Position numbers and translations under genes: made by a program
The notes under the pieces: model-generated
The model's database searches: none
Told to the model about the DNA's origin: nothing
The model's input: the letters and a program-made list of their open reading frames with translations, nothing else
Source: Steroidobacterales bacterium
GTDB taxonomy: Bacteria > Pseudomonadota > Gammaproteobacteria > Steroidobacterales > Steroidobacteraceae
Direction: 5' to 3'
Length of the DNA stretch: 64,000 bases
Assembly (NCBI GenBank): GCA_044440135.1
Contig: JBIODC010000004.1
Coordinates: forward strand, 11,835-75,834
Shown here: positions 40,942-62,377 of the stretch, piece by piece
Numbering within the stretch: position 1 is the stretch's first letter
Layout: each line of letters opens with the position of its first letter

Positions 40942-40946
40942 CTGTG

Positions 40947-43083: not shown

Positions 43084-44109
43084 GTGCCCATCAGTTCCGC
43101 CACCGACCCCTTTCACGAGCGTTCCACCGGCCTGCATCGCCGGCACCTGCATCTGCTTGGGGCGCAGGTGCGGTTCGAGAGCAACAGCGACCGCCTGCTG
43201 CGGCTGGTCGATCAGGCGTTTGCGGGCCTGTCGCCGCACCAGCTGTTTGCCGAGACACCGCGGCTGCGAGTCCGATTGCAGTTGATGCCGCGCGCGCACC
43301 GCAACCCGGCCCGCGAGCCGCCGCTGATGAAGATGTTCGCCGCCCCCGGATTGCTCTGCGGCGCGATGGACGAGTCGAATCTCGCGGTCGTGTCGCCGGC
43401 ACAGCGCTCGGCCCTGGTGGTCATTTCCCGCGACATGCTCCGTCATCCCTACCATGCCCGCTACGAGCTGATCGAGTTTGCCGTGTATATGCTGGCCGCG
43501 CGCGCGCAGGGACTGGTGCCGCTGCACGCCGCGGCGGTCGGCTGCGAGGGTCGCGGACTGCTGCTGATGGGCGGCAGCGGCGCCGGCAAGTCCACGATGG
43601 CGCTGCATTGCCTGCTGCAAGGCCTGGAGCTGCTGTCCGAGGACAGCGTGTTCGTGACGCCCGGTGGACTGATGGCGACCGGGATTGCCAACTTCCTGCA
43701 CCTGCACCCGCAGGGCCTGCGTTTTCTGCGTGGCCACCACAGCGCAGAGCGGATACGCAGCTCACCGATGATCCGGCGCCGCAGCGGCGCGGAAAAATAT
43801 GAACTCGACCTGCGCCACGCCGATTACCGGCTGGCGTCGGCGCCATTGACCGTCCAGGCGGTGGTATTCCTGTCGACCCGCCGCGCCGGTGATCGCCGCC
43901 TGCTGGTGCCGGTCCCCAGGCGCGAGCTGGCCGCGCGGCTCGCCGCCCAGCAGCCGTACGCCTCAGGCCAGCAAGGCTGGCACACGTTTACCCGGCGTCT
44001 GTCGGGCGTTCGGGCATTCGAGCTGCACCGGGGCTCTCATCCGCGCGTGGCGGTCGAGGTATTGCGTGGATTGCTGGATGTTCCAGTGCGGCGTACACGG
44101 CGTGCATAG
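43084..44109 (+). CDS. HPr-kinase-related P-loop protein (HprK-related kinase family)
   Basis: GTG 43084, 10 nt after the S8 stop. P-loop LLLMGGSGAGKSTMAL sits where the HPr kinase C-terminal domain has its Walker A. Family assigned from motif, length and context only. Confidence 0.6.
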   Translation: MPISSATDPFHERSTGLHRRHLHLLGAQVRFESNSDRLLRLVDQAFAGLSPHQLFAETPRLRVRLQLMPRAHRNPAREPPLMKMFAAPGLLCGAMDESNLAVVSPAQRSALVVISRDMLRHPYHARYELIEFAVYMLAARAQGLVPLHAAAVGCEGRGLLLMGGSGAGKSTMALHCLLQGLELLSEDSVFVTPGGLMATGIANFLHLHPQGLRFLRGHHSAERIRSSPMIRRRSGAEKYELDLRHADYRLASAPLTVQAVVFLSTRRAGDRRLLVPVPRRELAARLAAQQPYASGQQGWHTFTRRLSGVRAFELHRGSHPRVAVEVLRGLLDVPVRRTRRA

Positions 44110-45331
44110 ACAACGGCCGTGGCGGGCGGCTCACGACCCAGCGCCAGATGCGCCGGCCTTGTGACAAGTGCGGCCAGGCACTGGCCGTCGCCCAGGTCTG
44201 CGCACGCTGCGCCACGCGCATCGCGAGCAGCTCCCGGCTCGGCATGATGCGATCGCGCATGTAGGTGAGCCTTTCGGACATCGAAATCGACCAGCCGATT
44301 CCCGGAAAGGCTTCGATCCGGAGGTTCGCCAGCGAGACCTCCGAGAGCCGCTGGCGCCGGGACATGTCTCGCAAGCGACGCGGGCAGTCCGGCCTGAGCG
44401 TCGCCAGCACGTCGCCCGGTATGGCTTGCGGGTAGTAGCGCGCCACCAGTTCCAAAGGCGGCACCGCCCACCACAGCGCCCGATCGTCGCGTCGGAAGGA
44501 GAGCAGCCGCGCCCAATCGCCCGTGCGCATGTGCGCCGCCAGCAACGCCAGATCGTGCAGTTGGATCAGCCGCAGTGCGCGCCCCACCATGTTGCCGGCG
44601 GCGTGCAGCAGCAGATGTGCGAACAACGCTGCGACCGACGGATAGCGGTTCAGGCCCGGATGCGGCTGCGCCGGATGAATCAGCGCCGAGACGTCCGCAA
44701 TGCTCAGCGGCAGCCGCTCGGCGACCCGGATGTGCAGGTCGATCTTGATCGGACGGTCGGCGTGTTCGCCGAAACCGGCGGCGGCCGCTGGCACGACGGC
44801 GGTGGCGTGCTGCGCCGGCTCGAACTCGCGCTCCTTCCAGCTCACCGAGGTATTGAGGTACCCGAGCTGGTGCAGCAACCGGGTCACCCGCGACAGCTCG
44901 GGTTCCGTCACCAGCAGGTCCACGTCGGCCATCGGCCGCTCACCGCCCGAGTAGACGCCCAACTGATGCAGGGCCGCTCCCTTGAGCGCCACGATTGGGA
45001 GGCCCGCGCGGCGCGCGTGCTCGTCGATGCGCGCCAGCAGCGCCAGAATGCGCTGATGCCGGACGGCGGTGTGAATCCGCTGCTGGCTCAGGAAACGCTG
45101 CCATTCGCCGGGACCGCGCCAACGCAGGATACCGGCCAGCAGCGGTGTGACGCCCTGCAGAACGGCGGCGGCACGGGCCATGCTCCACTCGAACTCGGTC
45201 CAGTGCGGCCGCGTGCACCCCGGATGTGCCAGCTCGGCGGCGAAGAACTCGCTCGTGCGCTGCAGCGCTAGCTGCACGCGCGGCAGCGGCGGCAGCCGCT
45301 GCGCTTCAGACTGCCACGGCGGCATCGGCAT
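43988..45331 (-). CDS. Uncharacterised nucleotidyltransferase family protein (PF14907 / NTP_transf_5-like)
   Basis: LPIVALKGAALHQLGVYSGGERPMADVDLLVTEPEL core. 447 aa. The 3' end overlaps the convergent kinase-like gene by 122 nt. The start is either 45331 or 45325. Confidence 0.6.
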   Translation of the reverse strand: MPMPPWQSEAQRLPPLPRVQLALQRTSEFFAAELAHPGCTRPHWTEFEWSMARAAAVLQGVTPLLAGILRWRGPGEWQRFLSQQRIHTAVRHQRILALLARIDEHARRAGLPIVALKGAALHQLGVYSGGERPMADVDLLVTEPELSRVTRLLHQLGYLNTSVSWKEREFEPAQHATAVVPAAAAGFGEHADRPIKIDLHIRVAERLPLSIADVSALIHPAQPHPGLNRYPSVAALFAHLLLHAAGNMVGRALRLIQLHDLALLAAHMRTGDWARLLSFRRDDRALWWAVPPLELVARYYPQAIPGDVLATLRPDCPRRLRDMSRRQRLSEVSLANLRIEAFPGIGWSISMSERLTYMRDRIMPSRELLAMRVAQRAQTWATASAWPHLSQGRRIWRWVVSRPPRPLSMHAVYAALEHPAIHAIPRPPRADESPGAARMPERPTDAG

Positions 45332-46781
45332 CCGGTTCGGCGTCGTGGTTGCCTCGATACTGCCGTTCGCTCGAGATCAGGTCCTCCCAGCGCTGCTGCT
45401 GCGACTGTGTGGCGCGGCGGTAATCCTCGTGGCGATGCGCGGCATCCAACTGCTGCGCGGACACCTGGTCGTGCAGCAATCCGCGCACCGCACGGTAGAA
45501 CTCAGAGCGATAGGTTCCATGGAACATCATTTCCAGATCGTCGCTCTCGTGCCAATGGGTCTTGGCACCGAGCTGCGCCTTGACCTGCTCGTAGAATGGC
45601 GTGCCGGGCAGCGGATAGGACACGCTGACGCCGACATCGTCGGGACGCGCGCGCTCGATCAGATCGCGCGTCGCCAGAATGTCCGCGAGCCGCTCGCCCA
45701 GATAGCCGATCTGGATGAAAAAGCCGATCCGTATGTTTTCGGCCTTCAGGCGCGCGCGGGCGGTCAGGATCTCCTCGACCGTGATGCCCTTGTTCATCGC
45801 GTTCAGCACCCGCTGGCTGCCGCTTTCGGCGCCTATCCAGACTTCGGCGCAGCCCGCATCTGCCAGGGCTCGTGCCATCGCGACGCTGATCAGGTCGGCG
45901 CGCGTCTGGATGGTGAACGGGATCGCACCGCCCGCCGAACGGGCCGCTTGCGCGAATTCGCCGATCCAATCGACGCGAAAACCGAAGATATCGTCGGCAA
46001 ACCAGATGTGGTCGGGACGGAACCGTTGCTTCAGATCGGTCATTTCCGCGGCGACGTCGCGTGCGCCACGCTGCAGATAGCGGTTACCCCAGATCGGCTT
46101 GGAGCACCAGTTGCAACGAAACGAACAACCGCGCGAGGCGGCCATGTTCAGGCTGAAGTAGCCATGCGAGCGCATCCACATCGTGCGATAGCGTTCCATG
46201 TCGATCAGGTCCCAGGCCGGCGGCTCGAGCCGCTGCGCATCGGCGGCCGGCCTGGCGCCGCGGTTCACCGTCAGCCGGCCGTGCGCGATCGCGGCAACAC
46301 CCAGCTGTCCTTCGATCAGCTGCGTGACCGCAAGTCGCGGATTGGTGTCGAGCCGCGCGGTGAGCACCCGCAGCGTCGGCAGCCCTTCGCCTATGAGCAC
46401 CGCGTCAGCGCCGGCGTCCAGGTAGGGCTGCGGTGCATCCGACGCGTCGGACCCGACGGCGATCACACGGGCATCGGCGGCGCGCGCCAGGCAGATCATC
46501 TGGCAGCTTGCCACGCGCATGCGCTGCAGGCACATCTTGCTCAGGAAATTGAAGCTGTCCTCGTACAGCAGCACCAGCTGCGGGCGCGCCTCGCGTAGCA
46601 GTTGCTGGTATTCCTCCAGCCCCTCGGCCAGCATCGCGTCGAACACGCGCACCGCGTGTCCGGCCTGGCGCAGGCCCGACGCCACCTGCAGCGTCGCCAG
46701 CGGCGGGTACGGCTTGGCGCGCTCGAGCTGCTTGCGGTCGAAGCGCAGAAAATACGAATGCGCAACCACGATGGACAGCAT
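45306..46781 (-). CDS. B12-binding-domain radical SAM protein (no. 1)
   Basis: ATG 46781 (MLSIVVAHSYFLRFD...). N-terminal Rossmann-like B12-binding region and radical-SAM CSFRCNWC. 491 aa. The 70 upstream track codons were rejected. Confidence 0.85.
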   Translation of the reverse strand: MLSIVVAHSYFLRFDRKQLERAKPYPPLATLQVASGLRQAGHAVRVFDAMLAEGLEEYQQLLREARPQLVLLYEDSFNFLSKMCLQRMRVASCQMICLARAADARVIAVGSDASDAPQPYLDAGADAVLIGEGLPTLRVLTARLDTNPRLAVTQLIEGQLGVAAIAHGRLTVNRGARPAADAQRLEPPAWDLIDMERYRTMWMRSHGYFSLNMAASRGCSFRCNWCSKPIWGNRYLQRGARDVAAEMTDLKQRFRPDHIWFADDIFGFRVDWIGEFAQAARSAGGAIPFTIQTRADLISVAMARALADAGCAEVWIGAESGSQRVLNAMNKGITVEEILTARARLKAENIRIGFFIQIGYLGERLADILATRDLIERARPDDVGVSVSYPLPGTPFYEQVKAQLGAKTHWHESDDLEMMFHGTYRSEFYRAVRGLLHDQVSAQQLDAAHRHEDYRRATQSQQQRWEDLISSERQYRGNHDAEPDADAAVAV

Positions 46782-46842
46782 TTTTTTGTCTTCTTCCGAT
46801 CGATTCGTGACCGCTGGGCTGTGGTACCGCGCTGCCGCGCCA

Positions 46843-47955
46843 CTACAGGAACAGATGCAGTTCGGCAAACCCGAAGGTTTGGTTTTGCAGGTTGTTCTGT
46901 GGAATGCCCTGATAGCGCCGGAATCCGGCCCGCGCCTGCAGGAATGGAATCGGAGTGAGCTCGTACACCACGCTCCAGCGCGTCTGGCCATTGTTCGGGA
47001 CGCTGCGTTCCGGGTCGTAGAATTCGTAGGTCAGCTTAAGATTGTTGCCTTTGCAGATCGCCCAGTCCGCCTCGGCCAGGGCCGGAATCATGCTGCGTGT
47101 GCCGTCGGGAAAGCCGGCCTGCCGGACCAGATCGGCTTCGCCCAGCCAGGCTACGGGCCCGGTTCTCACGCCGGCGAACACGCCGTACATCGATCGATCG
47201 CCGGCGTCGGCCTTGGTGAATGCACTGGCCACGCCGACGCGCCATATCGACTGCACGCGCACCAGCTGACCCGTGACCTGGTAACCGGAGCCGCCGCCCG
47301 CATTGGCGGAACCGTTGGTCAGGTCGAGCTGCCCCGACCAGTTCGGACGCTCCAGGCCGAATTCGACGCCGTTGTCCGGCGTCGTCATATTGATGCCGGT
47401 CGCGATGCGCACCAACGCCGTCTGGTCCTGCAGGCGCCAGCCGAATGGCAGATAGAAGTGGCCGGCCTTGAGGTACCAGTCGGAGGTGTCGCCGTAGCGC
47501 GCGTACGCCTCCATGGTCTGTGCGGCGCCGGGCGCGACCTGCTCGTCAACGTACAGGCCCAGCCGGTTCGGGATCAGCGTGACATCGGCGTACATCCGGA
47601 ACTGTTCGAGCGCAAACTGCTGCTGCGATGGCGACTGCGGCACCGTGGTCCGCGACCAGTCCGTTCTCAGGTCGCCGCCGATGCGCACGATGTCCTGCAG
47701 CACCTGTCCCAGCCACACCGGTGCATTAGCGGGAAGCGTGGTGGCCGGCATCGCGTTCTCGGCGAATACCAGACCGAAGGCGTTGCGCAGGCCGCCGCCG
47801 GTCGGATTGACGTGGCAGGCGACGCATTTGTAACCCTGCTGCACGGCGAGATACGGTTCCGCCACCGCCACTCGCGTGCTGGCCCACGCGACGCAAGCCA
47901 GCGCAAACAGCAGCGGTGCGATGCGCAGGCGTGCCGCGCGACCAGTAGTCTTCAT
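46843..47955 (-). CDS. Predicted outer-membrane beta-barrel protein with an N-terminal CxxCH motif
   Basis: ATG 47955 overlaps the upstream TGA (ATGA). Signal LRIAPLLFALACVAWASTRVAVA, then YKCVACHVNPTGGG and alternating-hydrophobic strands. Ends ...FGFAELHLFL. Confidence 0.7.
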   Translation of the reverse strand: MKTTGRAARLRIAPLLFALACVAWASTRVAVAEPYLAVQQGYKCVACHVNPTGGGLRNAFGLVFAENAMPATTLPANAPVWLGQVLQDIVRIGGDLRTDWSRTTVPQSPSQQQFALEQFRMYADVTLIPNRLGLYVDEQVAPGAAQTMEAYARYGDTSDWYLKAGHFYLPFGWRLQDQTALVRIATGINMTTPDNGVEFGLERPNWSGQLDLTNGSANAGGGSGYQVTGQLVRVQSIWRVGVASAFTKADAGDRSMYGVFAGVRTGPVAWLGEADLVRQAGFPDGTRSMIPALAEADWAICKGNNLKLTYEFYDPERSVPNNGQTRWSVVYELTPIPFLQARAGFRRYQGIPQNNLQNQTFGFAELHLFL

Positions 47956-48812
47956 GGCGTGGCGGCCACGGTGAACCGGCTGATGATTCGATCGCCGTTG
48001 ACGTCGGCGGCCGGCAGCGCGGTGAGGGCCTGGCCATCGCTGGCGCTGAGCCCGGCACCGGGCTGTCCACTGAGCACGATCTGATAGTCGCCGGCCATCA
48101 GCGGCGCGCGCGGCGTCAGCAGCAGCGCGCGCGGATTGGCCGCTGGCACCGATGGATCGATCGCGACGGCGATCGTCGACGCGGTTCCGGCTGCGCCCAC
48201 GCTGCGCTCCAGGCGCACTGCGGCTGTATCGACGCGCGTGGCATCCAGTTCGCGCGTGAATCCGAGCACGATCTGCGCCGGTGGCACCGGCAGCACGTCG
48301 CGGTCGTCCGGCGCCAACGAGGCGATGCGGAAACTCGCGGCCATCGGGCTGGCCAACGCTCCCGGCTGCGCGCCGTCCGTGATCCACTGAACGATGAAGG
48401 CAATGGTGCTCGCGGGCAGCGGCGTCTCGCCGAGCGGCATCTGTGCGCCGACGGCGGCATGCCCTTCGATTTTCTGAATGATGTAACTGTTGGTGGGGTC
48501 GCCCGGCTTGACGCGATCGATGCTCGGCACTTCGGTGCTGGGGATGTTCACCAGCAGGTTGTAGCCATGCGCCGCATCCAGCATCAGGCCTTGCGGGGCG
48601 GTGGCCCCGATATGGCACACCGAACAGATTGGTGTGAACACGTTGGCTTGTATGGCGTCGAAGTTGGCGGACAATGGCACCGGGCCGCCCGAGCTCGATC
48701 CGGTCAGCGGCTGTCCGCTGCTGTCGAGGCCGGCGCCGCTACCCGAGCAGGCGCACAGCCAGATGCAAAGCACACCCGAGGCAGCTTGAGAGGTGCGAAT
48801 CAGAGTCGTCAC
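47952..48812 (-). CDS. Lipoprotein with cytochrome-c-like CxxCH domain (PSCyt1-like) and C-terminal Ig-like domain
   Basis: GTG start. Lipobox-like IWLCAC|SGS. NVFTPICSVCHIGATAPQGL...VKPGDPTNSYIIQKI...IVQWITDGA resembles the planctomycete cytochrome C domain. The C-terminus is beta-rich. Confidence 0.65.
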   Translation of the reverse strand: MTTLIRTSQAASGVLCIWLCACSGSGAGLDSSGQPLTGSSSGGPVPLSANFDAIQANVFTPICSVCHIGATAPQGLMLDAAHGYNLLVNIPSTEVPSIDRVKPGDPTNSYIIQKIEGHAAVGAQMPLGETPLPASTIAFIVQWITDGAQPGALASPMAASFRIASLAPDDRDVLPVPPAQIVLGFTRELDATRVDTAAVRLERSVGAAGTASTIAVAIDPSVPAANPRALLLTPRAPLMAGDYQIVLSGQPGAGLSASDGQALTALPAADVNGDRIISRFTVAATP

Positions 48813-48896
48813 AGCGGTAGGTGCCGGTCACCGCGTCGGCGGTTTTATCCGACGCAGGGCAATGGCCGGCGGATCGCCCCGCGCTGGCCGGTGAGC

Positions 48897-50009
48897 CTAT
48901 CGCCGGCCAGCGCTCAGGCTCGAGTAGAGGGCTTGAAAGCGCGCGGCGGTGAAATCGGCGTCTTCCCGCGCGGCGCGCCCCAGAGCCTCGCGAGCGATAC
49001 CGAGGCGCAGATCTTCGTCGGCGAGCAGCCGCTCGATGGCGCCGGCGAGGGCAACCGGATCGCCGACCGGTACCGCGATTGCGGCTTCCGGCGCCCATTC
49101 CGCGACATGTCCAACCGTCGTTCCCACCGTCGGCACGCCGGTCACGGCCGCCTCCAGCATCGCCAGCGGGCCCGCCTCATGGCGTGACGAGACGATCATC
49201 AGGTCCGCGGCCTCCACCACCGGACGCAATTGCCGTTGCGTCAGAAAGCCACGGAACCTGACTTGTCCGGACAGCCCCAATTGTCCCGCCAGCGCCTGGA
49301 TTTCGCCGTGCAGCGTATCGTCACCGACGATATCCGCCTCAAAGCGCACGCCGGATCGTGCCAGAGCGGCAAGCGCGCGCAGCAGCGTCGGTTGATCCTT
49401 GACCCGATTGAGGCTGGCGACCTGGATCAGCCTCGCCGGCCGGCCGGGCTCGCGCCGCAGCGGAGCTCGTGGCGGCCAAATGCTCAGATCGACGCCGAGT
49501 GGCAGACGTTGCGCCGCCAGTCCAAGTTCCGACAGCAGACCGACGACCGGCGAGCTCGTCGCGGTCACGGCGGATGCGCTGCGCAGGACCAGCGCTTCGC
49601 GCACGCGGCCGCGCCAGCTCTGCCTGCCGCCAAAGCCAATATCGGGCATCGCAACCACCTCGCCGCCGGTGACATGAACCAGGCTCGGGACGCCCAGGAT
49701 GCATGCGGCCACCACCGCCACCTGGCCGCTGGCCCCCGACCACATCGCGTGCACGATGCTGAACGGCGAGCAGCGATGCAGCTTCCGGATCGCACGCACG
49801 GCTCGCGGGCGCGTGTAGCGTGAGCCGATGTTGTGGATCCGGGCGCCCGCCAGATCCCAACTGCCGGGCCGAGCCTCCTGATGCAACGCGAAAACCTGGA
49901 CGTCATGGTGCCGGGACAGCCGCTCGATCAGGGACAACAGCGCCGGAATCACCCGGTACTCTCCCGACCGATCGACCCCTCCAGGTACCACCAGAGCGAT
50001 GCGCATCAT
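48897..50009 (-). CDS. Glycosyltransferase family 4 (GT-B)
   Basis: MMRIALVVPGGVDRSGEY N-terminus and C-terminal HEAGPLAMLEAAVTGVPTVGT motif. The start is ATG 50009 or 50006 (the track start 50012 is TTG). Confidence 0.85.
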   Translation of the reverse strand: MMRIALVVPGGVDRSGEYRVIPALLSLIERLSRHHDVQVFALHQEARPGSWDLAGARIHNIGSRYTRPRAVRAIRKLHRCSPFSIVHAMWSGASGQVAVVAACILGVPSLVHVTGGEVVAMPDIGFGGRQSWRGRVREALVLRSASAVTATSSPVVGLLSELGLAAQRLPLGVDLSIWPPRAPLRREPGRPARLIQVASLNRVKDQPTLLRALAALARSGVRFEADIVGDDTLHGEIQALAGQLGLSGQVRFRGFLTQRQLRPVVEAADLMIVSSRHEAGPLAMLEAAVTGVPTVGTTVGHVAEWAPEAAIAVPVGDPVALAGAIERLLADEDLRLGIAREALGRAAREDADFTAARFQALYSSLSAGRR

Positions 50010-50133
50010 CAAGGTAGGTGCCCGCTACGGCCCGAAAGGTTTTTCGTGACCTGCGGGCACACGCAGCCCCGGTTGCGGCCATTGTCCGCGCAATCGAAGT
50101 CTGACACGCTGCGCCAGCCTCTCTGATTGAAAC

Positions 50134-50982
50134 ATGCATCGACCACCCAACTCACCTGCGGCACCGCCGGTCTGTACCGAGCCGCAACTGCGCGACACAC
50201 GGACTGCATTCGACAGCGTCGCGGCAGACTATGACGGTCCGCGCGGCAACAACGCGCTGATTCAGGACATGCGCCGGGAGATGTGGCACTGGCTGGACGT
50301 CACGTTTGCCGCCGGCAGCCGATTGATCGACATCGGCTGTGGCACCGGCCTGGATGCGGTCCGCATGGCGGGCCTCGGGCATCAGATCACGGCCACCGAC
50401 TGGTCGCCGCAAATGGTGCAGCGGACCTGCGCTCGTGCGGCGAGCGAACACCTGGAGGCGCGCGTGCAGGCAATCGCCGTGGGTGCACAGGAATTGGGGC
50501 TGCTCGACGGCGCCGGCAGCTACGACGGCGCGTATTCCAATCTTGGCCCGCTCAATTGCGCGCCCGATCTGGCCGAGGTGTCGCGCGAATGCGCGCGCCT
50601 GCTCAAACCCGGGGGCGCGCTGGTGTTTTCCGTCATTGGCCGCATCTGCCCGTGGGAGATTGCGCATTACCTGGGGCGGGGCCGGTGGGCGCGGGTGAAA
50701 CTGCGCTTTGCCCGCAACTTCGTGCCGGTCGGCATGAACCGTCACACCATCTGGACGCGCTACTATGGGCCGCGCGAATTCTATCGCGCGTTCCGGCGCC
50801 AGTTCGCGCTCAGCCACTTCCGTGGCCTGTGCGTGTTCGCGCCGCCGCCGTATCTGATCTGGGTTCGAGAGCGGCATCCGCGCTGGCACGATCGCCTGTG
50901 GCGACTGGATCGACGGCTGGCCGGGTGGCCGCTGCTGCGCGCGATGGGCGATCATTTCCTGATCGTCATGCAGAAGCGCTGA
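50134..50982 (+). CDS. Class I SAM-dependent methyltransferase
   Basis: Motif I LIDIGCGTGLDAVRMA and post-I ITATDWSPQMV. 282 aa. Confidence 0.85.
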   Translation: MHRPPNSPAAPPVCTEPQLRDTRTAFDSVAADYDGPRGNNALIQDMRREMWHWLDVTFAAGSRLIDIGCGTGLDAVRMAGLGHQITATDWSPQMVQRTCARAASEHLEARVQAIAVGAQELGLLDGAGSYDGAYSNLGPLNCAPDLAEVSRECARLLKPGGALVFSVIGRICPWEIAHYLGRGRWARVKLRFARNFVPVGMNRHTIWTRYYGPREFYRAFRRQFALSHFRGLCVFAPPPYLIWVRERHPRWHDRLWRLDRRLAGWPLLRAMGDHFLIVMQKR

Positions 50983-51018
50983 CGCCGGCGAGTTTGGGCA
51001 GCGCGACGCCGCTTCGAG

Positions 51019-53031: not shown

Positions 53032-53033
53032 CA

Positions 53034-53777: not shown

Positions 53778-53830
53778 AGACCGGGAATCCGCTGGCAGCA
53801 TTCGCCAGCGTCCGACGCGCGGCTTCGGCT

Positions 53831-55018: not shown

Positions 55019-56811
55019 CAGCGCATGCCGGCCAATTGCTTGAAGCCCTCTGAGTCGCGGAGCAGCTCAGCGTAGGACCCGCTGGCCATGATCTTCCCGT
55101 TGGCGAGCTCGAAGATCACATTGCAGGTGCGCAGCGTGCTCAAGCGGTGAGCGATCAGAATGATGGTATAGCTGCCGCGCAGGCTCATCAGGGTCGCGAT
55201 CAGCTCCTGTTCGGTCAAGCCATCCAGGGCGTTGGTGGCTTCGTCCAGAATCAGTACCGAGGCTTCACGGTAGAGTGCACGGGCAATGCCGACCCGCTGA
55301 CGTTGACCGCCACTCAAGCCAACGCCGCGCTCACCGACCGGGTGATCGTAGCCGTCGGGCAGGCTGCGCACGAATTCGTCGAGCTGCGCGCGCCGTGCGG
55401 CGGCGAGCAGCCGCTCCCGATCGATATGCTCCCTCGGAACGCCGAGCGCGACATTCTGCGCGATGCTCGCATCCATTAGACCGATATGCTGCGGAACGTA
55501 GGCGATCCGGTGTTGCCACGCCGCGCGCGTTGCGTGGTCCACGGCGATGCCGTCGACTTCCACCTGGCCCGTCACAGGCACGAGCAACCCCGCAATCAGA
55601 TCGACCAGCGTGCTCTTTCCCGAACCGTTGGCACCTACGAAGCCGACTACCGATCGCGCGGGAATCACCAGCGAGACCGCGTTGACCGCCGGCGGCGCAT
55701 CGGCCGAATAGGCGAACGTTACCTCGGTCATGCGGATGTCCCGTGCCGGACGTTGCCGCCACGATTCATCCACCGCCGCGGGTATATCGATGGCGGAGCG
55801 CGCCAGCCGCAGATCCGGCGCTATCGCGGCAAATCCGGTGCGGCTGGCGCGAATTCTGATTGCCGCCACGAATGCCTGCTGCAGCGTGGGCAGCAGCCGA
55901 TACGCCGCAAATCCCATGAAGGTCAGCTGACCCAGCCACGGGCTGACGCCGTCGTCGCGGCTACCCAGCAGCAGGGCCGTGCCGACCAGACCCGCCACGG
56001 CGACGCACTCCATCACGTGCCTTGGGCTCTGGCTCACGAGCTGGGTGTGCGCGACGGCCAGCGACAGGGTTCGGCTTGCGCGGTCGAATCGGTCGCGAAA
56101 TACGTTCTGGATTCGAAACAGCAGGATTTCCTTCATCGCGCCCAGGGTCTCGGTGACGATCTTTGTCTGCTCGATAAAGAACTTCGACTGAACCTGGCCG
56201 CAGCGCAGCGACCGCTTGCGCACTGCGAGGTAGATCAGCAGATAGCCGCCGCCGAGCGCTCCGATCATCGCCAGGGCAACCGCCGGGTTGAGCAGCAGAA
56301 CCGATACGATGATGAATGCCGCCGTGATGATGGCCGTGACCAGGGTGAATGCGCTCTGCAGGATCTCATTGGTGACCCGGGCGGTCTCGTGGATGACGTT
56401 GTTGTAGATCGTTGCGCTGTGCGTTTGCGCGTGAAAGACATACGGGCGGCGAAGATACTCACCGAACAATGTTGCCTGCAGGTCGGCGCCGATCCACCAG
56501 GCCAGCCGACTCATCGCGAAGGCGCCCAGGATGTTGATCACGTTGGCGATCACTACCAGTGCCACGAACCCAAGACCCAGGGCCACGATGAATCTGCGGT
56601 TGCTTGAGAATCCCAGGTGAACGTACAGCCAGTGCACCGGCCCGACCGAATCGATCAACTCCGGTCTTCCCAGCACGGAGAAGAATGGCGCGATCGAAAC
56701 TATCCCGGTCACGGTGGAGAACGCCATCGTGACCGAAAGCACCTGCGCCGCGAGTACCCAGCGTCGTTGCCGGGGCGTCAGGATGCTCCAGATGTCGCGC
56801 AGCATGCTCAT
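55018..56811 (-). CDS. Fused TMD-NBD ABC exporter (MsbA/PglK type); no C39 peptidase domain
   Basis: ATG 56811 overlaps the upstream TGA (ATGA). Six-helix TMD. GANGSGKST, LSGGQRQR, VLILDEAT. 597 aa. Confidence 0.9.
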   Translation of the reverse strand: MSMLRDIWSILTPRQRRWVLAAQVLSVTMAFSTVTGIVSIAPFFSVLGRPELIDSVGPVHWLYVHLGFSSNRRFIVALGLGFVALVVIANVINILGAFAMSRLAWWIGADLQATLFGEYLRRPYVFHAQTHSATIYNNVIHETARVTNEILQSAFTLVTAIITAAFIIVSVLLLNPAVALAMIGALGGGYLLIYLAVRKRSLRCGQVQSKFFIEQTKIVTETLGAMKEILLFRIQNVFRDRFDRASRTLSLAVAHTQLVSQSPRHVMECVAVAGLVGTALLLGSRDDGVSPWLGQLTFMGFAAYRLLPTLQQAFVAAIRIRASRTGFAAIAPDLRLARSAIDIPAAVDESWRQRPARDIRMTEVTFAYSADAPPAVNAVSLVIPARSVVGFVGANGSGKSTLVDLIAGLLVPVTGQVEVDGIAVDHATRAAWQHRIAYVPQHIGLMDASIAQNVALGVPREHIDRERLLAAARRAQLDEFVRSLPDGYDHPVGERGVGLSGGQRQRVGIARALYREASVLILDEATNALDGLTEQELIATLMSLRGSYTIILIAHRLSTLRTCNVIFELANGKIMASGSYAELLRDSEGFKQLAGMR

Positions 56812-57974
56812 CGGGCGCTGGAGCTGCATTCGCGCCGTGGCATGAGGGCCCCGGATCTTCGGTCGAGCATGTCGCGATAGACTGCATTCAGCTTGCGGCC
56901 GATGGCCGCGATGGACAGCTCGCGGTCGAAGTGCGCGCGCACCGATGCGCGCAGATCCTTGCCCGACCGCATCCAGATCGATACCAGCGCCAGCGCCAGG
57001 CGCTGCGCGCTACCGCATGGCCAGAGCTCGCCAACCATGGCATCGCCGGTGAGCGCGCGAAAGGCAGGGATGTCCGACACCACCGGCGGGACACCGCAGG
57101 CCATCGCCTCCAGCAGCGCGTAGCCGCTGCCTTCGCGGCGACTTCCGAGTACGAACAGATCCGCCGCGCGCATCACCTGTTGAATCTGCTCGTGGGGCAC
57201 GCTTCCCATCAGGCGGGTTCTCGCAGCCAGTCTCGGGTCCTGCGCGATGCGCCGCTGCACCGCTGCCAGCAACGGCGCGCTACCGAAATAGCACCACAGG
57301 CGCAGGCCGGGCAGGCGCTCAGCCGCCGCGCTCACGCCATCGAGCACGGTCAGTGGATCCTTGTTCTCGTTCAAGTGTCCCACCCACAGGACGCATGGGT
57401 CACCGTGCAGTCCGGTCGCGCGTTGCGCCTGAGCCTGATCTCCCGGCGCGAAATGGCTGGTCCCCTCGGGAACCTCGTAGACCACGGTGGACGCACTGAC
57501 GAGACCGGCATCCCGGAACGGCATGGCCTGCTCTTTGGCACAGAAGCATAGGCCCGAGGCCGCCGACAGGCAGCGGCGCCATAACGGCCGTCGCCATTTG
57601 CGCGGTGGCTGATCGGCATGATCCTGCAGCAGCATCGGGGTTCGCGGCGCGAGCTTCGCGAGCGCCAGCACTTCGTGCGGAAAGCCGAGGCCGTGCACAT
57701 GCAGCACATCGGCATTCAGATCACGGATCAGCCGACGCAGCCCCGATCCCCGCGCAATACCGGACGCATGCCGATGCGGCGCCAGGAAGTGATAGGTGAT
57801 GTCACGTTGGGTGAGGGTCTGTGCGCGCGAGCTGGCCTGGATGACCGACACCTGGGCCCCACCGCCGCAGGCGGCCTGCGCCACGTCGACCATCGTCGGC
57901 CAATCGTGCAGCAGCTGCTGCGGCTCGCGTTGGCGAGGGTCGATGAAGAAGCCGATCTGTGCCACGCGCAGCAT
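56808..57974 (-). CDS. Glycosyltransferase family 4 (GT-B)
   Basis: ATG 57974 (MLRVAQIGFFIDP...) overlaps the upstream TGA (TGATG). C-terminal REGSGYALLEAMACGVPPVVSD. The 90 upstream track codons were rejected. Confidence 0.85.
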   Translation of the reverse strand: MLRVAQIGFFIDPRQREPQQLLHDWPTMVDVAQAACGGGAQVSVIQASSRAQTLTQRDITYHFLAPHRHASGIARGSGLRRLIRDLNADVLHVHGLGFPHEVLALAKLAPRTPMLLQDHADQPPRKWRRPLWRRCLSAASGLCFCAKEQAMPFRDAGLVSASTVVYEVPEGTSHFAPGDQAQAQRATGLHGDPCVLWVGHLNENKDPLTVLDGVSAAAERLPGLRLWCYFGSAPLLAAVQRRIAQDPRLAARTRLMGSVPHEQIQQVMRAADLFVLGSRREGSGYALLEAMACGVPPVVSDIPAFRALTGDAMVGELWPCGSAQRLALALVSIWMRSGKDLRASVRAHFDRELSIAAIGRKLNAVYRDMLDRRSGALMPRRECSSSAR

Positions 57975-59551
57975 CAGATTCCGGTCACTCGCGGATCGGC
58001 GAGGCGCACGAGTCGCTTCGACAGATCGAGTTCCCACGGCCGGTCGTAGAGGCGCAACCGATAACGCCAGGAGGCCAGCGCACTCAGGGTCGATTTGGTC
58101 CATGATCGGGTGCGCACGTCCTGCACGGTCGGGAATCGGCAGCCGAGCACCGTGACGAAATTGCGGATCCGCCGCCGCAGGCGCTCGCTCACCCACGGCG
58201 CGGCGGCATGGCACGCATAGTCGACCCACTGGCGCTCGGTCCATTCCTCCGGGCTGCGCGGGAAACGAACCGGATGGCCCGCGAGATTTAGCAGCGGCGG
58301 CGCGGCCGCGCCGCTGCGGGCATCATTCGGCAGATTCTCCGCGGGCAGCGGCGTGTAGATGTAGACGATGATCTCCGCGAACGGATTGACCCGCTTGAGC
58401 TCCCGAATGAACTCGAAAGTGCGCTCGGTCTCGCCCTCAGGATCGACCGGTGGCGCCACCATGAATGACAGTTCGGGTATGACGTCGTGGCGGCGACACA
58501 GTTCGGCCACCGCGATGGTCTGATCCGAGCGGGTGCCTTTGCGGATGCTCCTGAGCATCGCATCGTTCGGAGACTCGGCACCGATGTAGGCCATGCGCAG
58601 CCGGCTCTTGCGCACCAGGCTCCATGAGGCGTCGGTGAGGCCGAGCAGAGCGTCGGCACGGGCGTAACACCACCACGGCATCTGCACCCTCGAGAGCACC
58701 TGCAGCAGCGGAATCATGTCGTCTTCGCGGTCAAAGAAGTTGTGATCGAAAAACTGGATCGAGTCCGCGCCGAGTCGATCCCGCAGCCACAACAGGTCCC
58801 GCTCCAATCGGAGCGGCGGCGGCAGCGCCGTGGCTCCCCGAAACATCCCGGCCACGCCGCAGAAGGTGCAGCGGAAGCGGCAGCCGAGCGCGGCCTGGTG
58901 GGCCACGGTGCGTTGCCCGAGAAAGGTCCTGGCCAGGTATGCGCGCGGATCCCCCAGGCTGTGGTACGGCAGCGGTCGCGGCGATCGGCGATCGGCCGGC
59001 CGTCGATCCCGGTTGATGACGATCTCACCGCCTCGCTTCCATGTGATCCCATCAATCGACTCGAGCGCATCGCGTTCGCCGGCGCTGATTGCCTGCAGCA
59101 GTTGCGCGAAAGTCTGTTCGCCCTGACCCCGGACCGCGTAGTCCACGTAGGGCGCGTTGATGGCCGCGCCGCGGTACAGGGTCGGGAAATATCCACCCCA
59201 GACGATCGGCGTTGCCGCAGATGCCGCGCGCACCGCGAGCGAAGCGTCGATCGCGGTACGCACCTGCGGGCCTCCCATCACCGAGACGCCGACGGCGTCA
59301 AAGCACTGTTGCGACAGCGCTTGCCGGATCGTGTTGATGTAGTCGCGGTCGACATTGCCGTCGATGATCCGGCAGTCATAGTCCGGCTCCAGGGATGCCG
59401 CGAGCGCCAGCAATGACAGTGGAAAGCGCGCGCCGCGCCGCGAGGTGATCGTCGGATTGATCAGCAGAATCCGGCGTGCCGCTTCGGTCAGGGACGTGGC
59501 CGCAGTCACGGGCATCGGCAACCTTCTGCTGGTGGTCGGTGTGGTTCTCAT
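57974..59551 (-). CDS. B12-binding-domain radical SAM protein (no. 2)
   Basis: N-terminal RILLINPT...LLALAASL B12-binding-like region and radical-SAM CRFRCTFC. 525 aa. An alternative start is ATG 59515. Confidence 0.85.
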   Translation of the reverse strand: MRTTPTTSRRLPMPVTAATSLTEAARRILLINPTITSRRGARFPLSLLALAASLEPDYDCRIIDGNVDRDYINTIRQALSQQCFDAVGVSVMGGPQVRTAIDASLAVRAASAATPIVWGGYFPTLYRGAAINAPYVDYAVRGQGEQTFAQLLQAISAGERDALESIDGITWKRGGEIVINRDRRPADRRSPRPLPYHSLGDPRAYLARTFLGQRTVAHQAALGCRFRCTFCGVAGMFRGATALPPPLRLERDLLWLRDRLGADSIQFFDHNFFDREDDMIPLLQVLSRVQMPWWCYARADALLGLTDASWSLVRKSRLRMAYIGAESPNDAMLRSIRKGTRSDQTIAVAELCRRHDVIPELSFMVAPPVDPEGETERTFEFIRELKRVNPFAEIIVYIYTPLPAENLPNDARSGAAAPPLLNLAGHPVRFPRSPEEWTERQWVDYACHAAAPWVSERLRRRIRNFVTVLGCRFPTVQDVRTRSWTKSTLSALASWRYRLRLYDRPWELDLSKRLVRLADPRVTGI

Positions 59552-59557
59552 GCAGGT

Positions 59558-60271
59558 TCAGCTGAGCTTCAGGATCGCCAGCCTCTCGTTGACGAAGTCA
59601 CGCTCGGCGACCACCGCTATCGCAAACCCGCCGCGACGAAACTGGCCGACGAACTCGCGCGCTCCGCCGTAGTTAGATAGCAGCACCAGGGCAAATCCCG
59701 ATGGCGTCAGATGGTCCCTCAACCCGGACGCAAATCGTTCGGCAACGTCGGTCGATCGCCAGGCGCGATCGGCGTCGTCCCGGGGCACGCCGTGCAGGAA
59801 CGGCGGATTGAACAGCACCACGTCGAAGCGGCGACCGGTGAGCGGTGCGAACAGATCCCCGTGCAGCACCTCGATTCTGTCCTCGCACCGGTGGATCATC
59901 GTGTTGATACGGGCGCAGCGTACCGCCGCGGGATTGATGTCCACGGCGGCGACGTGCCGCGCATGCCTGGCGGCGAACAGCGCACACACGCCCGATCCGG
60001 TGCCCATGTCGAGCACGTCGGCATCGGCAGGCAGCAGGTCGGAGCGCAATTGCGACGCGAAGAACTCGCCGGTCCGCGTCAGCCGCGGATTGAGCACGCC
60101 CGGTGCGACCAGCAATGGCAGGCCGCCGACCTGCTCGAGCACGAAGTCATGCTGTCGCAGGTAGCGCGACAGGCGATAGCGCCAATGCAGCAGCCTGCCG
60201 ATGGCGCGCCGGATCGCGCCGTAGCCGGGCGCATCCAGCAGCGCCTGCAATGTCCGAGTCTGCGCGCCCAT
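59558..60271 (-). CDS. Methyltransferase of the HemK/PrmC-like (NPPF motif) type
   Basis: ATG 60271 (MGAQTRTLQALL...). Motif I VLDMGTGSGVCALFAA and motif IV VVLFNPPFL. 237 aa. The 277 upstream track codons were rejected because they overlap the rSAM gene. Confidence 0.8.
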   Translation of the reverse strand: MGAQTRTLQALLDAPGYGAIRRAIGRLLHWRYRLSRYLRQHDFVLEQVGGLPLLVAPGVLNPRLTRTGEFFASQLRSDLLPADADVLDMGTGSGVCALFAARHARHVAAVDINPAAVRCARINTMIHRCEDRIEVLHGDLFAPLTGRRFDVVLFNPPFLHGVPRDDADRAWRSTDVAERFASGLRDHLTPSGFALVLLSNYGGAREFVGQFRRGGFAIAVVAERDFVNERLAILKLS

Positions 60272-60288
60272 GGGTTCGGACTGACGGC

Positions 60289-61344
60289 TCAGACCGCGGC
60301 GGTCCGCGCCGGGCACAGTTCCCAGTCGGCGACGCCGCTCGGCTCTCGCCACATCGAACACACGCAGGTCGCGCACTCGGGGCGCCGCCGCTGCCCGATA
60401 TCGTGGCGCAGGCTCGTCATCGCATCGCCATTCAGGGCTGCCAGCAGATCGTCGTGCACCCGCGCCTCCGCCGGTCCGGGAATGAAATAGCACGGATGCA
60501 CCTGACCCTGTGCGTCGATCACCGCCGAGAACTCGGGTGCATTGCACCGCACCGCCGGATAGGCGCCCTGTCCGCAGACCGCGGCAAAGTATTGCAGGAT
60601 GCGCCCGAGCTTCTGCGGGCTCTCGGCGATGAAACCGGAGCGAAACTCCGCGGCACATTGCTGCGCCAGATCGCGCAACAGCTGTTCGAACAGCGGCAAA
60701 TCCTGTGGATGCAGGGCCAGATCCGAGCTGAATGCATCGGTGCGCCCGAATGCATGCGGGTTCGCAACATCGACCGCGAGAAACGAAATCCGATGCACGC
60801 CGGTCTGCCGGGCCAGCTCGACGAACCGCGGCAACTCGCGGTAGTTGGCCCGTTGCAGGGTGACCCGCAGGCTGATCCGCGCCCCGGCCACGGCGGCAGC
60901 GCGGATGCCTTCGCACACCTTGTCGAACGCGTCCAGGCCGCGAATGGCCGCGTAGGTTGCAGCGTTGGTGCCGTCCAACGATACGGTGATGGCATCGAAC
61001 AGCTCCGAGGCCTGCCGTGCGTGCCTGGTCAGCGACAGCCCGGAGGTCAACAGCCATGGGACCAGCCCGTTCGATTGCAGCAGGCGGGCGATGTCTGCCC
61101 ATTGCGGATTGATCAGCGGCTCGCCGCCGGACAGCTGGACCACGCGGGTCTGCAACTGCTTCAGGCTTGGCAGCAGCCGCTCGACCGATTCGAGATTCAT
61201 ATCGGCTCGACCATGTCGCCAGTAGTCACACGTCACGCAGCGTGAATTGCAGCGCTCGGTCAGGTACAGCGTGACCAGCGGCAGCCGTTGCAGCGGGCTC
61301 GGATCCGCCGGACGATTCGTCAGATGCACACGCGTACCGAGCAT
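60289..61344 (-). CDS. Radical SAM protein with C-terminal SPASM/twitch-like Cys cluster; no N-terminal RRE-sized extension
   Basis: SD AGGGGAA. CNSRCVTC at residues 32-39. C-terminal C-x12-G-x4-C (CNAPEFSAVIDAQGQVHPC) followed by CATCVC. Confidence 0.85.
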   Translation of the reverse strand: MLGTRVHLTNRPADPSPLQRLPLVTLYLTERCNSRCVTCDYWRHGRADMNLESVERLLPSLKQLQTRVVQLSGGEPLINPQWADIARLLQSNGLVPWLLTSGLSLTRHARQASELFDAITVSLDGTNAATYAAIRGLDAFDKVCEGIRAAAVAGARISLRVTLQRANYRELPRFVELARQTGVHRISFLAVDVANPHAFGRTDAFSSDLALHPQDLPLFEQLLRDLAQQCAAEFRSGFIAESPQKLGRILQYFAAVCGQGAYPAVRCNAPEFSAVIDAQGQVHPCYFIPGPAEARVHDDLLAALNGDAMTSLRHDIGQRRRPECATCVCSMWREPSGVADWELCPARTAAV

Positions 61345-61534
61345 GGTTCCCCTGGCCAGCGGCCAACAATCGCTCGCGCCGTGCCGGAGGGAGCGCGAGC
61401 AGGCAGCGGGCGGATCTGGACGCTACCTATGCGGTTAGTGCCTCGAGCGATCGGGTTGGTTGTTTCGACGGCTGCATCGCGCGCCTCGCCCGCTGCACTC
61501 GTGACCGGCTGCGTGTATAAGACTTGAGCTTGCG

Positions 61535-62377
61535 ATGAAGCCGCCTGCAACCGGACTGCTGGGTGACACTGCCGCACGCGACTATTCCGGCAAGTTGAAG
61601 CAATTCAACGCGTTTGCGCAGCCCGAGCTGCGGGCGGCGATGGCCAGTCTGCGGTTGCAGCCGGGCATGCGCGTGCTCGACGCCGGCTGCGGGACCGGCG
61701 AGGCCCTGGGCTGGCTGGCCGATGCGGTCGGGAAGGATGGCGCGGTCATCGGCATGGAGCTCGCGGCGGCCCATGCGACGATGGCCCGGGCCACCGCGGC
61801 GCCGTCGGCACTGGTGCTACAGGCTGACCTGATGAAAGCGCCGTTGCGCAGCGGCGCATTCGATCTGATCTGGTCGGTGAATACGATCAACCATCTGCGC
61901 GATCCGCTCGCCGGCATGAGATCTCTGGCCGCGCTGCTGCGGCCGCGTGGCCGGATTGCGCTCGGCCAGAGCTCGTTGCTGCCGGACATGCTGTTCGCCT
62001 GGGACGCGCGCCTCGAGCGGCTCACCACCGACGCGGTGCGCCAGTATTACCGTGATCGCTACGGCCTCAGCGAGCTCGACTTGGCCGCGGTGCGCTCGCT
62101 GGTGGGTTGGCTGCACGGCGCTGAGCTGGCAAACGTCAGCGTGCGCACATCAACGCTCGAGCGCATCTGGCCGCTGGACGCCGCGAGCGAGAATTATCTT
62201 CGGGACGTGATCTTCCGCGATACCTGGGGCGAGCGGCTGCGTCCGTACCTGTCCGCCCAGGACTACGATCAGCTCGCCCGCCTGTGCGATCCGCACAGTC
62301 CGGAATATGCGCTGCGCCGACCGGACCTGCATGTGGTGCAGACCTTCACGCTGGCGGTAGCGGAAATTCCACGGTGA
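61535..62377 (+). CDS. Class I SAM-dependent methyltransferase
   Basis: Motif I VLDAGCGTGEALGWLA and FDLIWSVNTINHL. 280 aa. Confidence 0.85.
   Translation: MKPPATGLLGDTAARDYSGKLKQFNAFAQPELRAAMASLRLQPGMRVLDAGCGTGEALGWLADAVGKDGAVIGMELAAAHATMARATAAPSALVLQADLMKAPLRSGAFDLIWSVNTINHLRDPLAGMRSLAALLRPRGRIALGQSSLLPDMLFAWDARLERLTTDAVRQYYRDRYGLSELDLAAVRSLVGWLHGAELANVSVRTSTLERIWPLDAASENYLRDVIFRDTWGERLRPYLSAQDYDQLARLCDPHSPEYALRRPDLHVVQTFTLAVAEIPR

Follow-up and report, generated by a model that had tools for sequence, protein, structure and literature searches.

Several described pathways combine some of the enzymes encoded by the gene cluster analysed here, a set of tailoring genes around three radical S-adenosylmethionine (SAM) enzymes that lies in a 64,000-nt stretch of DNA (the window) from a Steroidobacterales bacterium (Steroidobacteraceae; GenBank assembly GCA_044440135.1, contig JBIODC010000004.1, positions 11,835 to 75,834). 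Steroidobacteraceae are common in soil, and few members have been cultured. For the radical SAM/SPASM protein, one of the other radical SAM enzymes and an N-methyltransferase of the cluster, the nearest characterised relatives are BlsE (blasticidin S), AgnC7 (agrocin 84), AprD4 (apramycin) and GenN (gentamicin), from nucleoside and aminoglycoside tailoring. As in those pathways, an enzyme resembling nucleobase deaminases is coupled to a radical SAM enzyme, and the fusion of a glycosyltransferase (GT) with a radical SAM protein in one homologue recalls the order in which glycoside formation precedes BlsE. However, identities do not exceed ∼30%, the remaining genes of those pathways are missing, and the cluster is family-wide and linked to envelope genes rather than a sporadic antibiotic cluster.

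For the enzyme set, the closest analogy is the hopanoid side-chain pathway (HpnH, HpnI, HpnK, HpnJ and HpnP/HpnR), with its radical SAM enzyme, GT, hydrolase and B12-type radical SAM enzymes. The hopanoid exporter HpnN is of the resistance-nodulation-division (RND) type, whereas the cluster encodes an ATP-binding cassette (ABC) transporter and its neighbourhoods have no cyclase gene. Natural variants of the nucleoside hopanoids carry a methylated adenine, or a base that is deaminated and N-methylated (PMC12583986). Lipid-linked oligosaccharide pathways (Campylobacter pgl; OafA/OafB; SucT) share GT4 and GT2 enzymes, a PglK/MsbA-like fused ABC half-transporter and an acyltransferase-3 (AT3)-SGNH enzyme with the cluster, and relatives of the cluster add GT-C enzymes and sugar-nucleotide genes. 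Unlike these pathways, the cluster has no initiating phosphoglycosyl transferase or oligosaccharyltransferase, it has a conserved core of three radical SAM enzymes under extracytoplasmic function (ECF) sigma control, and its exporter falls short of equivalog level, scoring 228 against a cutoff of 1000 for PglK and 278 against 602 for MsbA.

HprK homologues, nucleotidyltransferases and sulfotransferases are tailoring genes of lasso peptides (PMC8498205), as an earlier preliminary description of the window had stated. Like the clusters for the lasso peptides paeninodin and pseudomycoidin (in which the kinase/transferase pair makes a phospho-linked hexose) and like SynChlorMet, our cluster places an HprK/ScmC-like kinase beside a PF14907-type transferase, and it has a sulfotransferase and a radical SAM/SPASM protein. 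Unlike them, it lacks a precursor, a lasso cyclase, B1/B2 and PqqD, and the models for ScmC, ScmE/F and HprK-related kinases A/B score far below cutoff on its proteins.

We find that the cluster recurs in related genomes and shares a promoter motif with the gene for an adjacent ECF sigma factor. With high confidence, we regard 39549–62377 (∼23 kb) as one co-regulated unit. Its product is, with moderate confidence, carbohydrate-based and non-peptide, either a glycolipid or oligosaccharide or a nucleoside-type glycoside. Every cluster protein stays below the curated NCBIfam cutoffs, which only the flanking glutathione reductase passes, and searches of the literature on radical SAM enzymes in Steroidobacteraceae, on ScmC/SynChlorMet and on this combination of enzyme classes revealed no matching system, which agrees with the preliminary description, where no described biosynthetic class could be assigned. 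A regulated three-radical-SAM module with no match among curated families points to an unknown molecule that is lineage-wide and probably envelope-associated or secreted.

The cluster is conserved in Steroidobacteraceae-type loci

The radical SAM/SPASM protein is 100% identical to an NCBI entry assigned to a Steroidobacterales MAG (metagenome-assembled genome), and relatives of it were found in 217 GTDB species genomes by an alignment-based search. Neighbourhoods spanning 10 kb on each side of its gene were collected for the best 80 loci, nearly all of them Steroidobacteraceae or unclassified Gammaproteobacteria/Proteobacteria MAGs. Genes were called, proteins were clustered, and family counts were made over 83 loci, the window included (Table 1); distribution outside the family was judged from representative clusters without genomic context. 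The cluster families recur around the radical SAM/SPASM gene in the 83 loci, which come from Steroidobacteraceae-type genomes of soil, in shuffled order and with different flanking neighbours, so the co-conservation check proposed in the preliminary description was positive. The most conserved partner is the B12-binding radical SAM gene with the CRFRCTFC motif, and the methyltransferases other than the HemK-like enzyme occur in 11–17 of the 83 loci.

The whole 20-gene module was seen in the closest relatives. Two of them, L084 (a complete-chromosome MAG) and L087, have nearly the architecture of the window, including the regulatory module, and differ in the sulfotransferase gene, which is present in L087 and missing from L084. 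The PF14907 gene adjoins the kinase and AprD4-like radical SAM genes in each of the six loci whose range covers the three genes (L083, L084, L087 and L088; L017 and L057 as judged only by tblastn or by our protein clustering), and it lies beside the AprD4-like gene without a kinase gene in L085 and L067.

An ECF sigma module and a common promoter motif

The preliminary description placed the left boundary at the kinase gene (43084). The unit instead begins at 39549, with the first of four further genes that are co-conserved with the cluster (for Gcw_chp protein, ECF sigma factor, zf-HC2 anti-sigma factor and S8 peptidase). The Gcw_chp gene adjoins the sigma factor gene in ∼10 related loci, and the S8 gene stops 10 nt 5′ of the kinase gene in the window and lies directly 5′ of the radical SAM/SPASM gene in L007 and L034. 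The regions upstream of the ECF sigma genes have a common motif, TG(C/A)AAC(C/T)TT ... CGG(T/C)AC(T/A)TA, and the commonest hexamers upstream of the radical SAM/SPASM genes spell the same motif; in the window cluster, it takes the form AACC-N14-18-GGYACTCA. Across the loci, the pattern AAC[CT]-N14-18-GG[TCA]AC.. had 98 matches, compared with 19–42 (about 29) in shuffled sequences. Among these matches are 47 directly upstream of radical SAM/SPASM genes (83 in all), 9 upstream of ECF sigma genes and 5 upstream of lipoprotein genes. Four of the five matches in the window precede the sigma gene and three cluster operons. The sigma-gene motif has a counterpart in the corresponding position in L083–L086, as do the lipoprotein-operon and GT4a motifs in L083/L084.

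The locus thus has an ECF protein with Sigma70 regions 2 and 4, an adjacent zf-HC2 protein and a common promoter motif at the sigma gene and its presumed targets. Because the motif precedes both the sigma gene and the cluster operons, the adjacent ECF sigma factor probably controls the cluster as its regulon and would recognise this motif. Described ECF/zf-HC2 envelope-stress regulons likewise pair a sigma with an anti-sigma factor, are autoregulated from a promoter that has an AAC −35 element and have envelope-related targets; here, in contrast, the presumed regulon is a biosynthetic cluster. We know of no ECF group with an S8 lipoprotease, a Gcw_chp protein and a CxxCH porin/lipoprotein pair. 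A scan for sigma-70 promoters and terminators gave results at or below chance. The pathway should switch on when the anti-sigma factor is removed, which offers an experimental handle, and if a scaffold or precursor gene lies elsewhere, a genome-wide scan for the promoter motif should expose it.

The −10 part of the GT4a motif lies only 3–6 nt from the start codon (50009–50012), and L084 is similar (motif at 16913–16939, GT4 start at 16907). This suggests that the GT4a transcript is leaderless or that the start is misplaced.

The radical SAM core and an either/or amino-group step

The preliminary description listed two B12-binding radical SAM proteins. The CRFRCTFC protein fully fits class B (cobalamin) radical SAM enzymes, whereas in the CSFRCNWC protein PF04055 is clear and the B12 domain is under the Pfam cutoff (26.6 versus 32.1 bits). 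The best PDB match of the latter is AprD4 (E 1e-15), and AprD4-like enzymes presumably also have a B12 domain that scores below cutoff. The third radical SAM enzyme, the radical SAM/SPASM protein that anchors the conserved core, is related to BlsE (E 5.5e-17) and to AgnC7 from the agrocin 84 plasmid (30% identity, E 1e-26). It has no N-terminal RiPP recognition element (RRE; RiPP, ribosomally synthesised and post-translationally modified peptide), since its CxxxCxxC motif begins at residue 32 and leaves no room for one.

In the related loci (L001–L082), the gene directly 3′ of the radical SAM/SPASM gene falls into two alternatives. In 38 loci, it encodes a HemK-like methyltransferase with an NPPF motif, as in the window, and in 34 loci it is replaced by another methyltransferase gene together with an amidohydrolase gene (four truncated loci have that methyltransferase gene alone). 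The HemK-like enzyme and the amidohydrolase option occur together in 0 loci, a strict either/or. The NPPF methyltransferase scores 85.2 bits against TIGR00537 (cutoff 87), and its PDB matches are HemK and the gentamicin N-methyltransferase GenN (E 1.2e-9). The amidohydrolase best matches deaminase families for 8-oxoguanine, guanine, 5′-deoxyadenosine, 5′-methylthioadenosine/S-adenosylhomocysteine (MTA/SAH), cytosine and aminofutalosine. The two alternatives may be compared with the nucleoside hopanoid variants, in which methylation of the amino group would correspond to the NPPF methyltransferase and the deaminated, N-methylated base to the deaminase with its methyltransferase.

A scan of 1.84 billion protein representatives identified two fusions with a radical SAM/SPASM domain like that of the cluster, one joined to a deaminase-like amidohydrolase (P0424) and the other to a GT4 enzyme (P0428). 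In addition, a single open reading frame (ORF) in L054 (11044–14109) joins GT4 and amidohydrolase. Given the either/or swap and these fusions, the GT, the radical SAM enzyme and the amino-group-modifying step probably act on one common intermediate, which would bear an amino or amidine group in exocyclic position, perhaps in the form of a nucleobase. The strict alternation and the fusions also constrain the structure of the product.

Accessory genes are overwhelmingly glycan-type

In the relatives, the variable accessory genes are overwhelmingly of the glycan type. They include families for GT2, GT87, PMT_2, AT3, AT3-SGNH, PIG-L and a GFO/MocA-2-hydroxyacid dehydrogenase, as well as another sulfotransferase family. 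In L085, the regulatory module, PF14907 gene, AprD4-like radical SAM gene, porin gene, PMT_2 and GT87 adjoin seven sugar-nucleotide genes, with a malate dehydrogenase/acyl-CoA dehydrogenase flank as in the window. The absence of sugar-nucleotide genes noted in the preliminary description is therefore true of the window and not of the family. The L085 set (1–5939: SIS, NTP_transferase, GHMP kinase, GFO/MocA, short-chain dehydrogenase/reductase, UDP-glucose/GDP-mannose dehydrogenase and epimerase) looks like a heptose- or uronic-acid-type pathway. In L064, six genes inserted within the conserved core (11692–17872) resemble an additional O-acylation module; besides the gene for an unknown protein, they comprise genes for MBOAT, MaoC-like and FkbH/GNAT proteins, one for a methyltransferase and a carrier-protein-like ORF.

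Among bacterial proteins in the PDB that match the exporter over its full length, PglK (189 bits) and MsbA (183 bits) score best, and they have its fold class. The AT3-SGNH protein has the Acyl_transf_3 and SGNH domains fused in one chain, and its predicted acceptor would be a glycan; to our knowledge, all characterised AT3-SGNH enzymes acylate extracytoplasmic glycans. The sulfotransferase, described earlier as TPST-like, does have the loop that binds 3′-phosphoadenosine-5′-phosphosulfate (PAPS), and the likeness ends there, as its best solved relative is of the polyketide synthase (PKS) OLS/CurM type. The AlphaFold2 (AF2) model of the kinase (pLDDT 89) has a two-domain fold like that of phosphoenolpyruvate carboxykinase (PEPCK) and HprK and contains no winged-helix/RRE domain. 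Where the preliminary description saw a mix of peptide-type and glycan-type enzymes, the supposed peptide-type members proved nearer to BlsE, AgnC7, AprD4 and GenN.

No precursor peptide in the window or related loci

Neither the window nor ∼87 related loci contained a precursor-sized ORF family, an RRE, a cyclase or a leader peptidase. Within the cluster span, the calls of 30–140 amino acids in 84 loci all proved to be fragments of genes, antisense artefacts or proteins unrelated to the cluster, and the only conserved small family was CcmD from a neighbouring ccm operon. Among the 20 products, the gaps and the ∼87 loci, there was no lasso cyclase, leader peptidase, PqqD-type RRE or lasso precursor. 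For proteusins, no NHLP or Nif11 precursor family was present, and TIGR03975 (cutoff 282) gave 39 and 48 bits. SynChlorMet has only PF27840 in common with the cluster (TIGR04249, 21.5 against 125; ScmF, 62.8 against 400; no PqqD), and the HprK-related kinase A/B models (TIGR04352/TIGR04355) gave 44.7 and 40.8 bits against 200. The preliminary description had named a precursor encoded elsewhere or as a tiny ORF, a lipid or glycolipid and an encoded lipoprotein as candidate substrates; these results do not support a hidden precursor as a leading candidate, and the lipid or glycolipid comes nearest to our own reading. For genome mining, the trio of HprK-like kinase, PF14907 protein and sulfotransferase should accordingly not be taken as diagnostic of a lasso peptide or other RiPP.

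The outer-membrane barrel is a predicted porin

The barrel protein belongs to a family of 1935 homologues that has no Pfam model and in which an invariant KCxxCHVNPTGGG motif lies just past the signal peptide. We expected the fold of a polysaccharide or glycolipid exporter and did not find it: the model is a porin, nearest to Omp32, OmpF and OprO (Foldseek), and so predicts a general or anion-diffusion porin and not a polymer exporter. Its role as product exporter is weakened by this fold. The lipoprotein has no Pfam match, and its CxxCH domain is one that we take to resemble Planctomycete PSCyt1. The families of the pair also occur in L020, L035, L039, L045, L078 and L086, the last of which has the ECF module together with the porin and a single-domain form of the lipoprotein, and no radical SAM gene within 10 kb. 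Given the porin fold and this pair without a radical SAM gene, the pair may belong to the sensing side rather than to export. A porin with a haem motif is unusual.

Proposed pathway and alternative explanations

The gene content, co-conservation, promoter motif and fusions described above suggest a pathway whose chemical steps and possible anchor are all predictions. The Gcw_chp protein, the zf-HC2 anti-sigma factor and the S8 lipoprotease would together sense an envelope signal, and the freed ECF sigma factor would drive its own operon and three cluster operons through the common promoter. GT4 enzymes, with a GT2 enzyme in most relatives, would assemble a glycoside in the cytoplasm. The BlsE/AgnC7-like radical SAM/SPASM protein and the two B12-type radical SAM enzymes (AprD4/HpnJ-like) would then remodel its carbon skeleton, with C-methylation, deoxygenation, decarboxylation and ring contraction as candidate reactions. 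The NPPF methyltransferase would N-methylate an exocyclic amino or amide group, which other species would deaminate before methylating. Further groups may come from the remaining methyltransferases (methyl, with O- as well as N-methylation expected), from the sulfotransferase (sulfate) and from the ScmC-like kinase and its PF14907 transferase (phospho-linked groups). The PglK/MsbA-like half-transporter would carry the product across the inner membrane, the AT3-SGNH enzyme would acylate it in the periplasm, and the porin-like barrel with its lipoprotein partner may provide passage or sensing at the outer membrane.

A more specific version is tentative and on balance doubtful: the core (radical SAM/SPASM enzyme, B12-type radical SAM enzymes, a GT and either the NPPF methyltransferase or the deaminase-like hydrolase with its methyltransferase) could make a glycoconjugate that bears a nucleobase, has not been described before and is found only in soil Steroidobacteraceae. 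Its base might enter through 5′-deoxyadenosyl addition (HpnH/MqnE-like) or as a hexosyl-nucleoside (blasticidin-like), and there might be two chemotypes, N-methyl-amino versus deaminated and methylated, mirroring the adenosyl- and N-methylinosyl-hopane 'soil-marker' lipids. The ECF sigma factor would switch this pathway on and would also control the haem-motif porin/lipoprotein pair.

Several observations weigh against a carbohydrate-based product. The window has no initiating phosphoglycosyl transferase, Wzx/Wzy/Wzz, Wzm/Wzt/Kps or sugar-nucleotide genes, and so does not resemble an O-antigen or capsule locus; the modelled barrel is a diffusion porin; the likenesses to characterised enzymes are all remote and far below family cutoffs; and the loci are almost all MAGs. 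The families of the ScmC/HprK-like kinase, PF14907 and the HemK-like methyltransferase are best known from RiPP contexts, and the combination of a peptidase-less ABC exporter and an S8 protease outside the cytoplasm recalls NisP/NisT. We considered a RiPP pathway with its precursor elsewhere in the genome, in which the radical SAM enzymes C-methylate and cross-link a peptide that also undergoes N-methylation, phosphorylation, glycosylation and sulfation, leaves through the ABC transporter and is freed by the S8 lipoprotease in the manner of NisT/NisP. Besides the known lasso-tailoring trio, this would account for the Pfam name of the kinase family, 'ScmC', taken from a putative RiPP cassette, for the near-cutoff score of the NPPF enzyme in a protein-glutamine methyltransferase family, for the S8 gene in the operon of the kinase gene or directly 5′ of the radical SAM/SPASM gene, and for weak matches of the B12-type radical SAM enzymes to RiPP C-methylases and the glutamine methylase of methyl-coenzyme M reductase (MCR). 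We consider it unlikely, as the searches above found no precursor family, PqqD/RRE, cyclase or leader peptidase and only far sub-cutoff family scores, the radical SAM/SPASM protein and the kinase model lack the domains that would bind a leader, the exporter has no C39 domain and best matches PglK and MsbA, and AT3-SGNH, MBOAT, GT87, PMT_2 and sugar-nucleotide genes play no part in known RiPP pathways.

Less probable again is that the cluster modifies a non-glycan membrane lipid, be it hopanoid-like or some other isoprenoid or acyl lipid. The radical SAM/SPASM protein would here be HpnH-like, the B12-type radical SAM enzymes HpnJ/HpnP/HpnR-like, the GTs HpnI-like and the ABC protein a lipid flippase, and the hopanoid side-chain pathway does have the same classes, with radical SAM enzyme, GT, deacetylase and B12-type radical SAM enzyme (PMC13459092). 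The HpnH model matches the radical SAM/SPASM protein over the full length (E 4e-13), the B12-type enzymes match HpnJ, HpnR and a ladderane-lipid radical SAM enzyme, the second B12-type enzyme of the relatives has HpnJ as its best match (113 bits), and MsbA is among the best matches of the exporter. However, the scores are far under cutoff (HpnH, 49 against 225; HpnJ, 77/53 in the window and 113 in the relatives against 578), NirJ, BlsE and AgnC7 fit the radical SAM/SPASM protein better than HpnH, no conserved lipid-synthesis gene is present in the neighbourhoods, and the squalene-hopene cyclase motif DxDDTA occurs in no long ORF of 87 loci. The hopanoid link is kept as an analogy only, because no neighbourhood has the cyclase motif. 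That the pathway glycosylates, methylates or sulfates one of its own envelope proteins (such as the porin, the CxxCH lipoprotein or the S8 lipoprotein) appears quite improbable: PMT_2 and GT87 (GT-C) in relatives are capable of protein glycosylation, the PglK-like flippase is reminiscent of general systems of that kind and the lipoprotein/porin pair has the common promoter motif, whereas no oligosaccharyltransferase is present, the pair is rarely within 10 kb of the radical SAM/SPASM gene (6–7 of 83 loci) and exists without a radical SAM gene in L086, and cytoplasmic radical SAM enzymes would need to act prior to protein export. A chance juxtaposition of unrelated islands, which could be suspected from genes on both strands in several transcription units and from accessory content that differs between genomes, is scarcely credible, since the same families are linked in 83 shuffled loci with different flanks, share a promoter motif and have fused core domains.

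Gene set and neighbouring genes

Genes were called by codon-usage log-odds and checked against Pfam, as the G+C content of the window (∼67%) makes most long ORFs spurious. This gave 16 genes in 43084–62377, not the 19 counted previously, and each listed protein type was present at its place (Pfam). The genes had been described as one contiguous array: the gaps are indeed short (the longest is 190 nt), and the genes form at least five transcription units on both strands. A six-frame reading of every gap in the window revealed no credible small ORF, and there were no Rfam or tRNA matches. In agreement with the earlier list of absences, Pfam and NCBIfam found no Asn-synthetase, transglutaminase, PqqD, non-ribosomal peptide synthetase (NRPS)/PKS, Wzx/Wzy or sugar-nucleotide domain in the cluster genes. 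Neither the kinase nor the PF14907 protein has a sequence match in the PDB. Their genes are convergent, with 3′ ends that overlap by 122 nt (43988–44109), and tblastn suggests the same in L084.

Table 1. Features of the cluster and number of loci (of 83) in which each family lies within 10 kb of the radical SAM/SPASM gene.
Feature	Position	Strand	Evidence or remark	Loci
Gcw_chp (TorF-like) outer-membrane protein, first regulatory-module gene	39549–40235	+	PF09694, E 1.1e-13	
ECF-type motif AACC-N-GGCACATA, before sigma gene	40270–40296	+	Presumed autoregulation	
ECF sigma factor	40363–40941	+	Sigma70_r2 and r4_2; co-conserved	11
Anti-sigma factor (N-terminal zf-HC2, one transmembrane helix, periplasmic tail)	40944–41621	+	PF13490, E 2e-6	
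S8 subtilase lipoprotein (lipobox LAGC, D/H/S motifs intact)	41655–43073	+	PF00082, E 2.8e-30	8
HprK/ScmC-like P-loop kinase	43084–44109	+	Weak PF07475; PF27840 'ScmC' on homologues	18
PF14907 nucleotidyltransferase	43988–45331	−	PF14907, E 1.7e-27	
Radical SAM protein, weak B12-like N-domain, CSFRCNWC, AprD4-like	45306–46781	−	PF04055, E 3.8e-16	
16-stranded porin-like barrel, N-terminal KCxxCHVNPTGGG	46843–47955	−	AF2 model and Foldseek	6
Lipoprotein (lipobox, CxxCH domain, Ig-like region)	47952–48773	−		7
ECF-type motif before lipoprotein/porin operon	48818–48844	−		
GT4 glycosyltransferase (a)	48897–50009	−	Glycos_transf_1 and Glyco_trans_4_4	19
ECF-type motif before GT4a	50015–50041	−		
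Class-I SAM methyltransferase	50134–50982	+	Methyltransf_25/11	15
AT3-SGNH acyltransferase (OafA/SucT-type)	51019–53031	−	PF01757, E 5e-29; PF19040, E 7e-40	
Class-I SAM methyltransferase	53034–53777	+	Methyltransf_23	17
PAPS-type sulfotransferase	53831–55018	−	PF13469, E 2.3e-30; variable accessory gene	7
ABC half-transporter exporter, without peptidase domain	55018–56829	−	ABC_membrane and ABC_tran	54
GT4 glycosyltransferase (b)	56808–57974	−		40
B12-binding radical SAM protein, CRFRCTFC	57974–59551	−	PF02310 (51 bits) and PF04055	73
HemK/MTQ2-like NPPF N-methyltransferase	59558–60376	−	MTS domain; true start probably near 60292	38
Radical SAM/SPASM protein, conserved-core anchor	60289–61344	−	PF04055 and PF13186	
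ECF-type motif before radical SAM/SPASM operon	61435–61461	−	91 nt 5′ of the operon	
Class-I SAM methyltransferase, divergent from radical SAM/SPASM operon	61535–62377	+	Methyltransf_11; always beside the cluster	11
Second B12-type radical SAM protein			Not in the window	53
GT2 glycosyltransferase			Not in the window	44

The left flank of the cluster is an ordinary housekeeping Mla-type transport system (Pfam), in which the MlaE permease (35957–37069) has an N-terminal STAS domain; an Mla-like left flank is also present in L084 and L087. A glutathione reductase gene marks the right end, and the same gene neighbours the cluster in other loci. In ∼25 loci (e.g. L015, L017, L019, L026 and L028), a complete ccm operon for cytochrome c maturation is divergent from the cluster, which may be plain synteny and deserves mention given the two CxxCH proteins in the regulon. 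L025 and L086 are labelled as Enterobacteriaceae and Gemmatimonadota MAGs despite typical Steroidobacteraceae-type genes, and these labels are probably binning or labelling errors. Elsewhere in the window and unrelated to the cluster are genes for a fusion of a receiver domain with a Ser/Thr protein kinase (15747–17054), a 612-amino-acid protein with a TonB C-terminal domain (17051–18889) and a TonB-dependent receptor (20570–23035).

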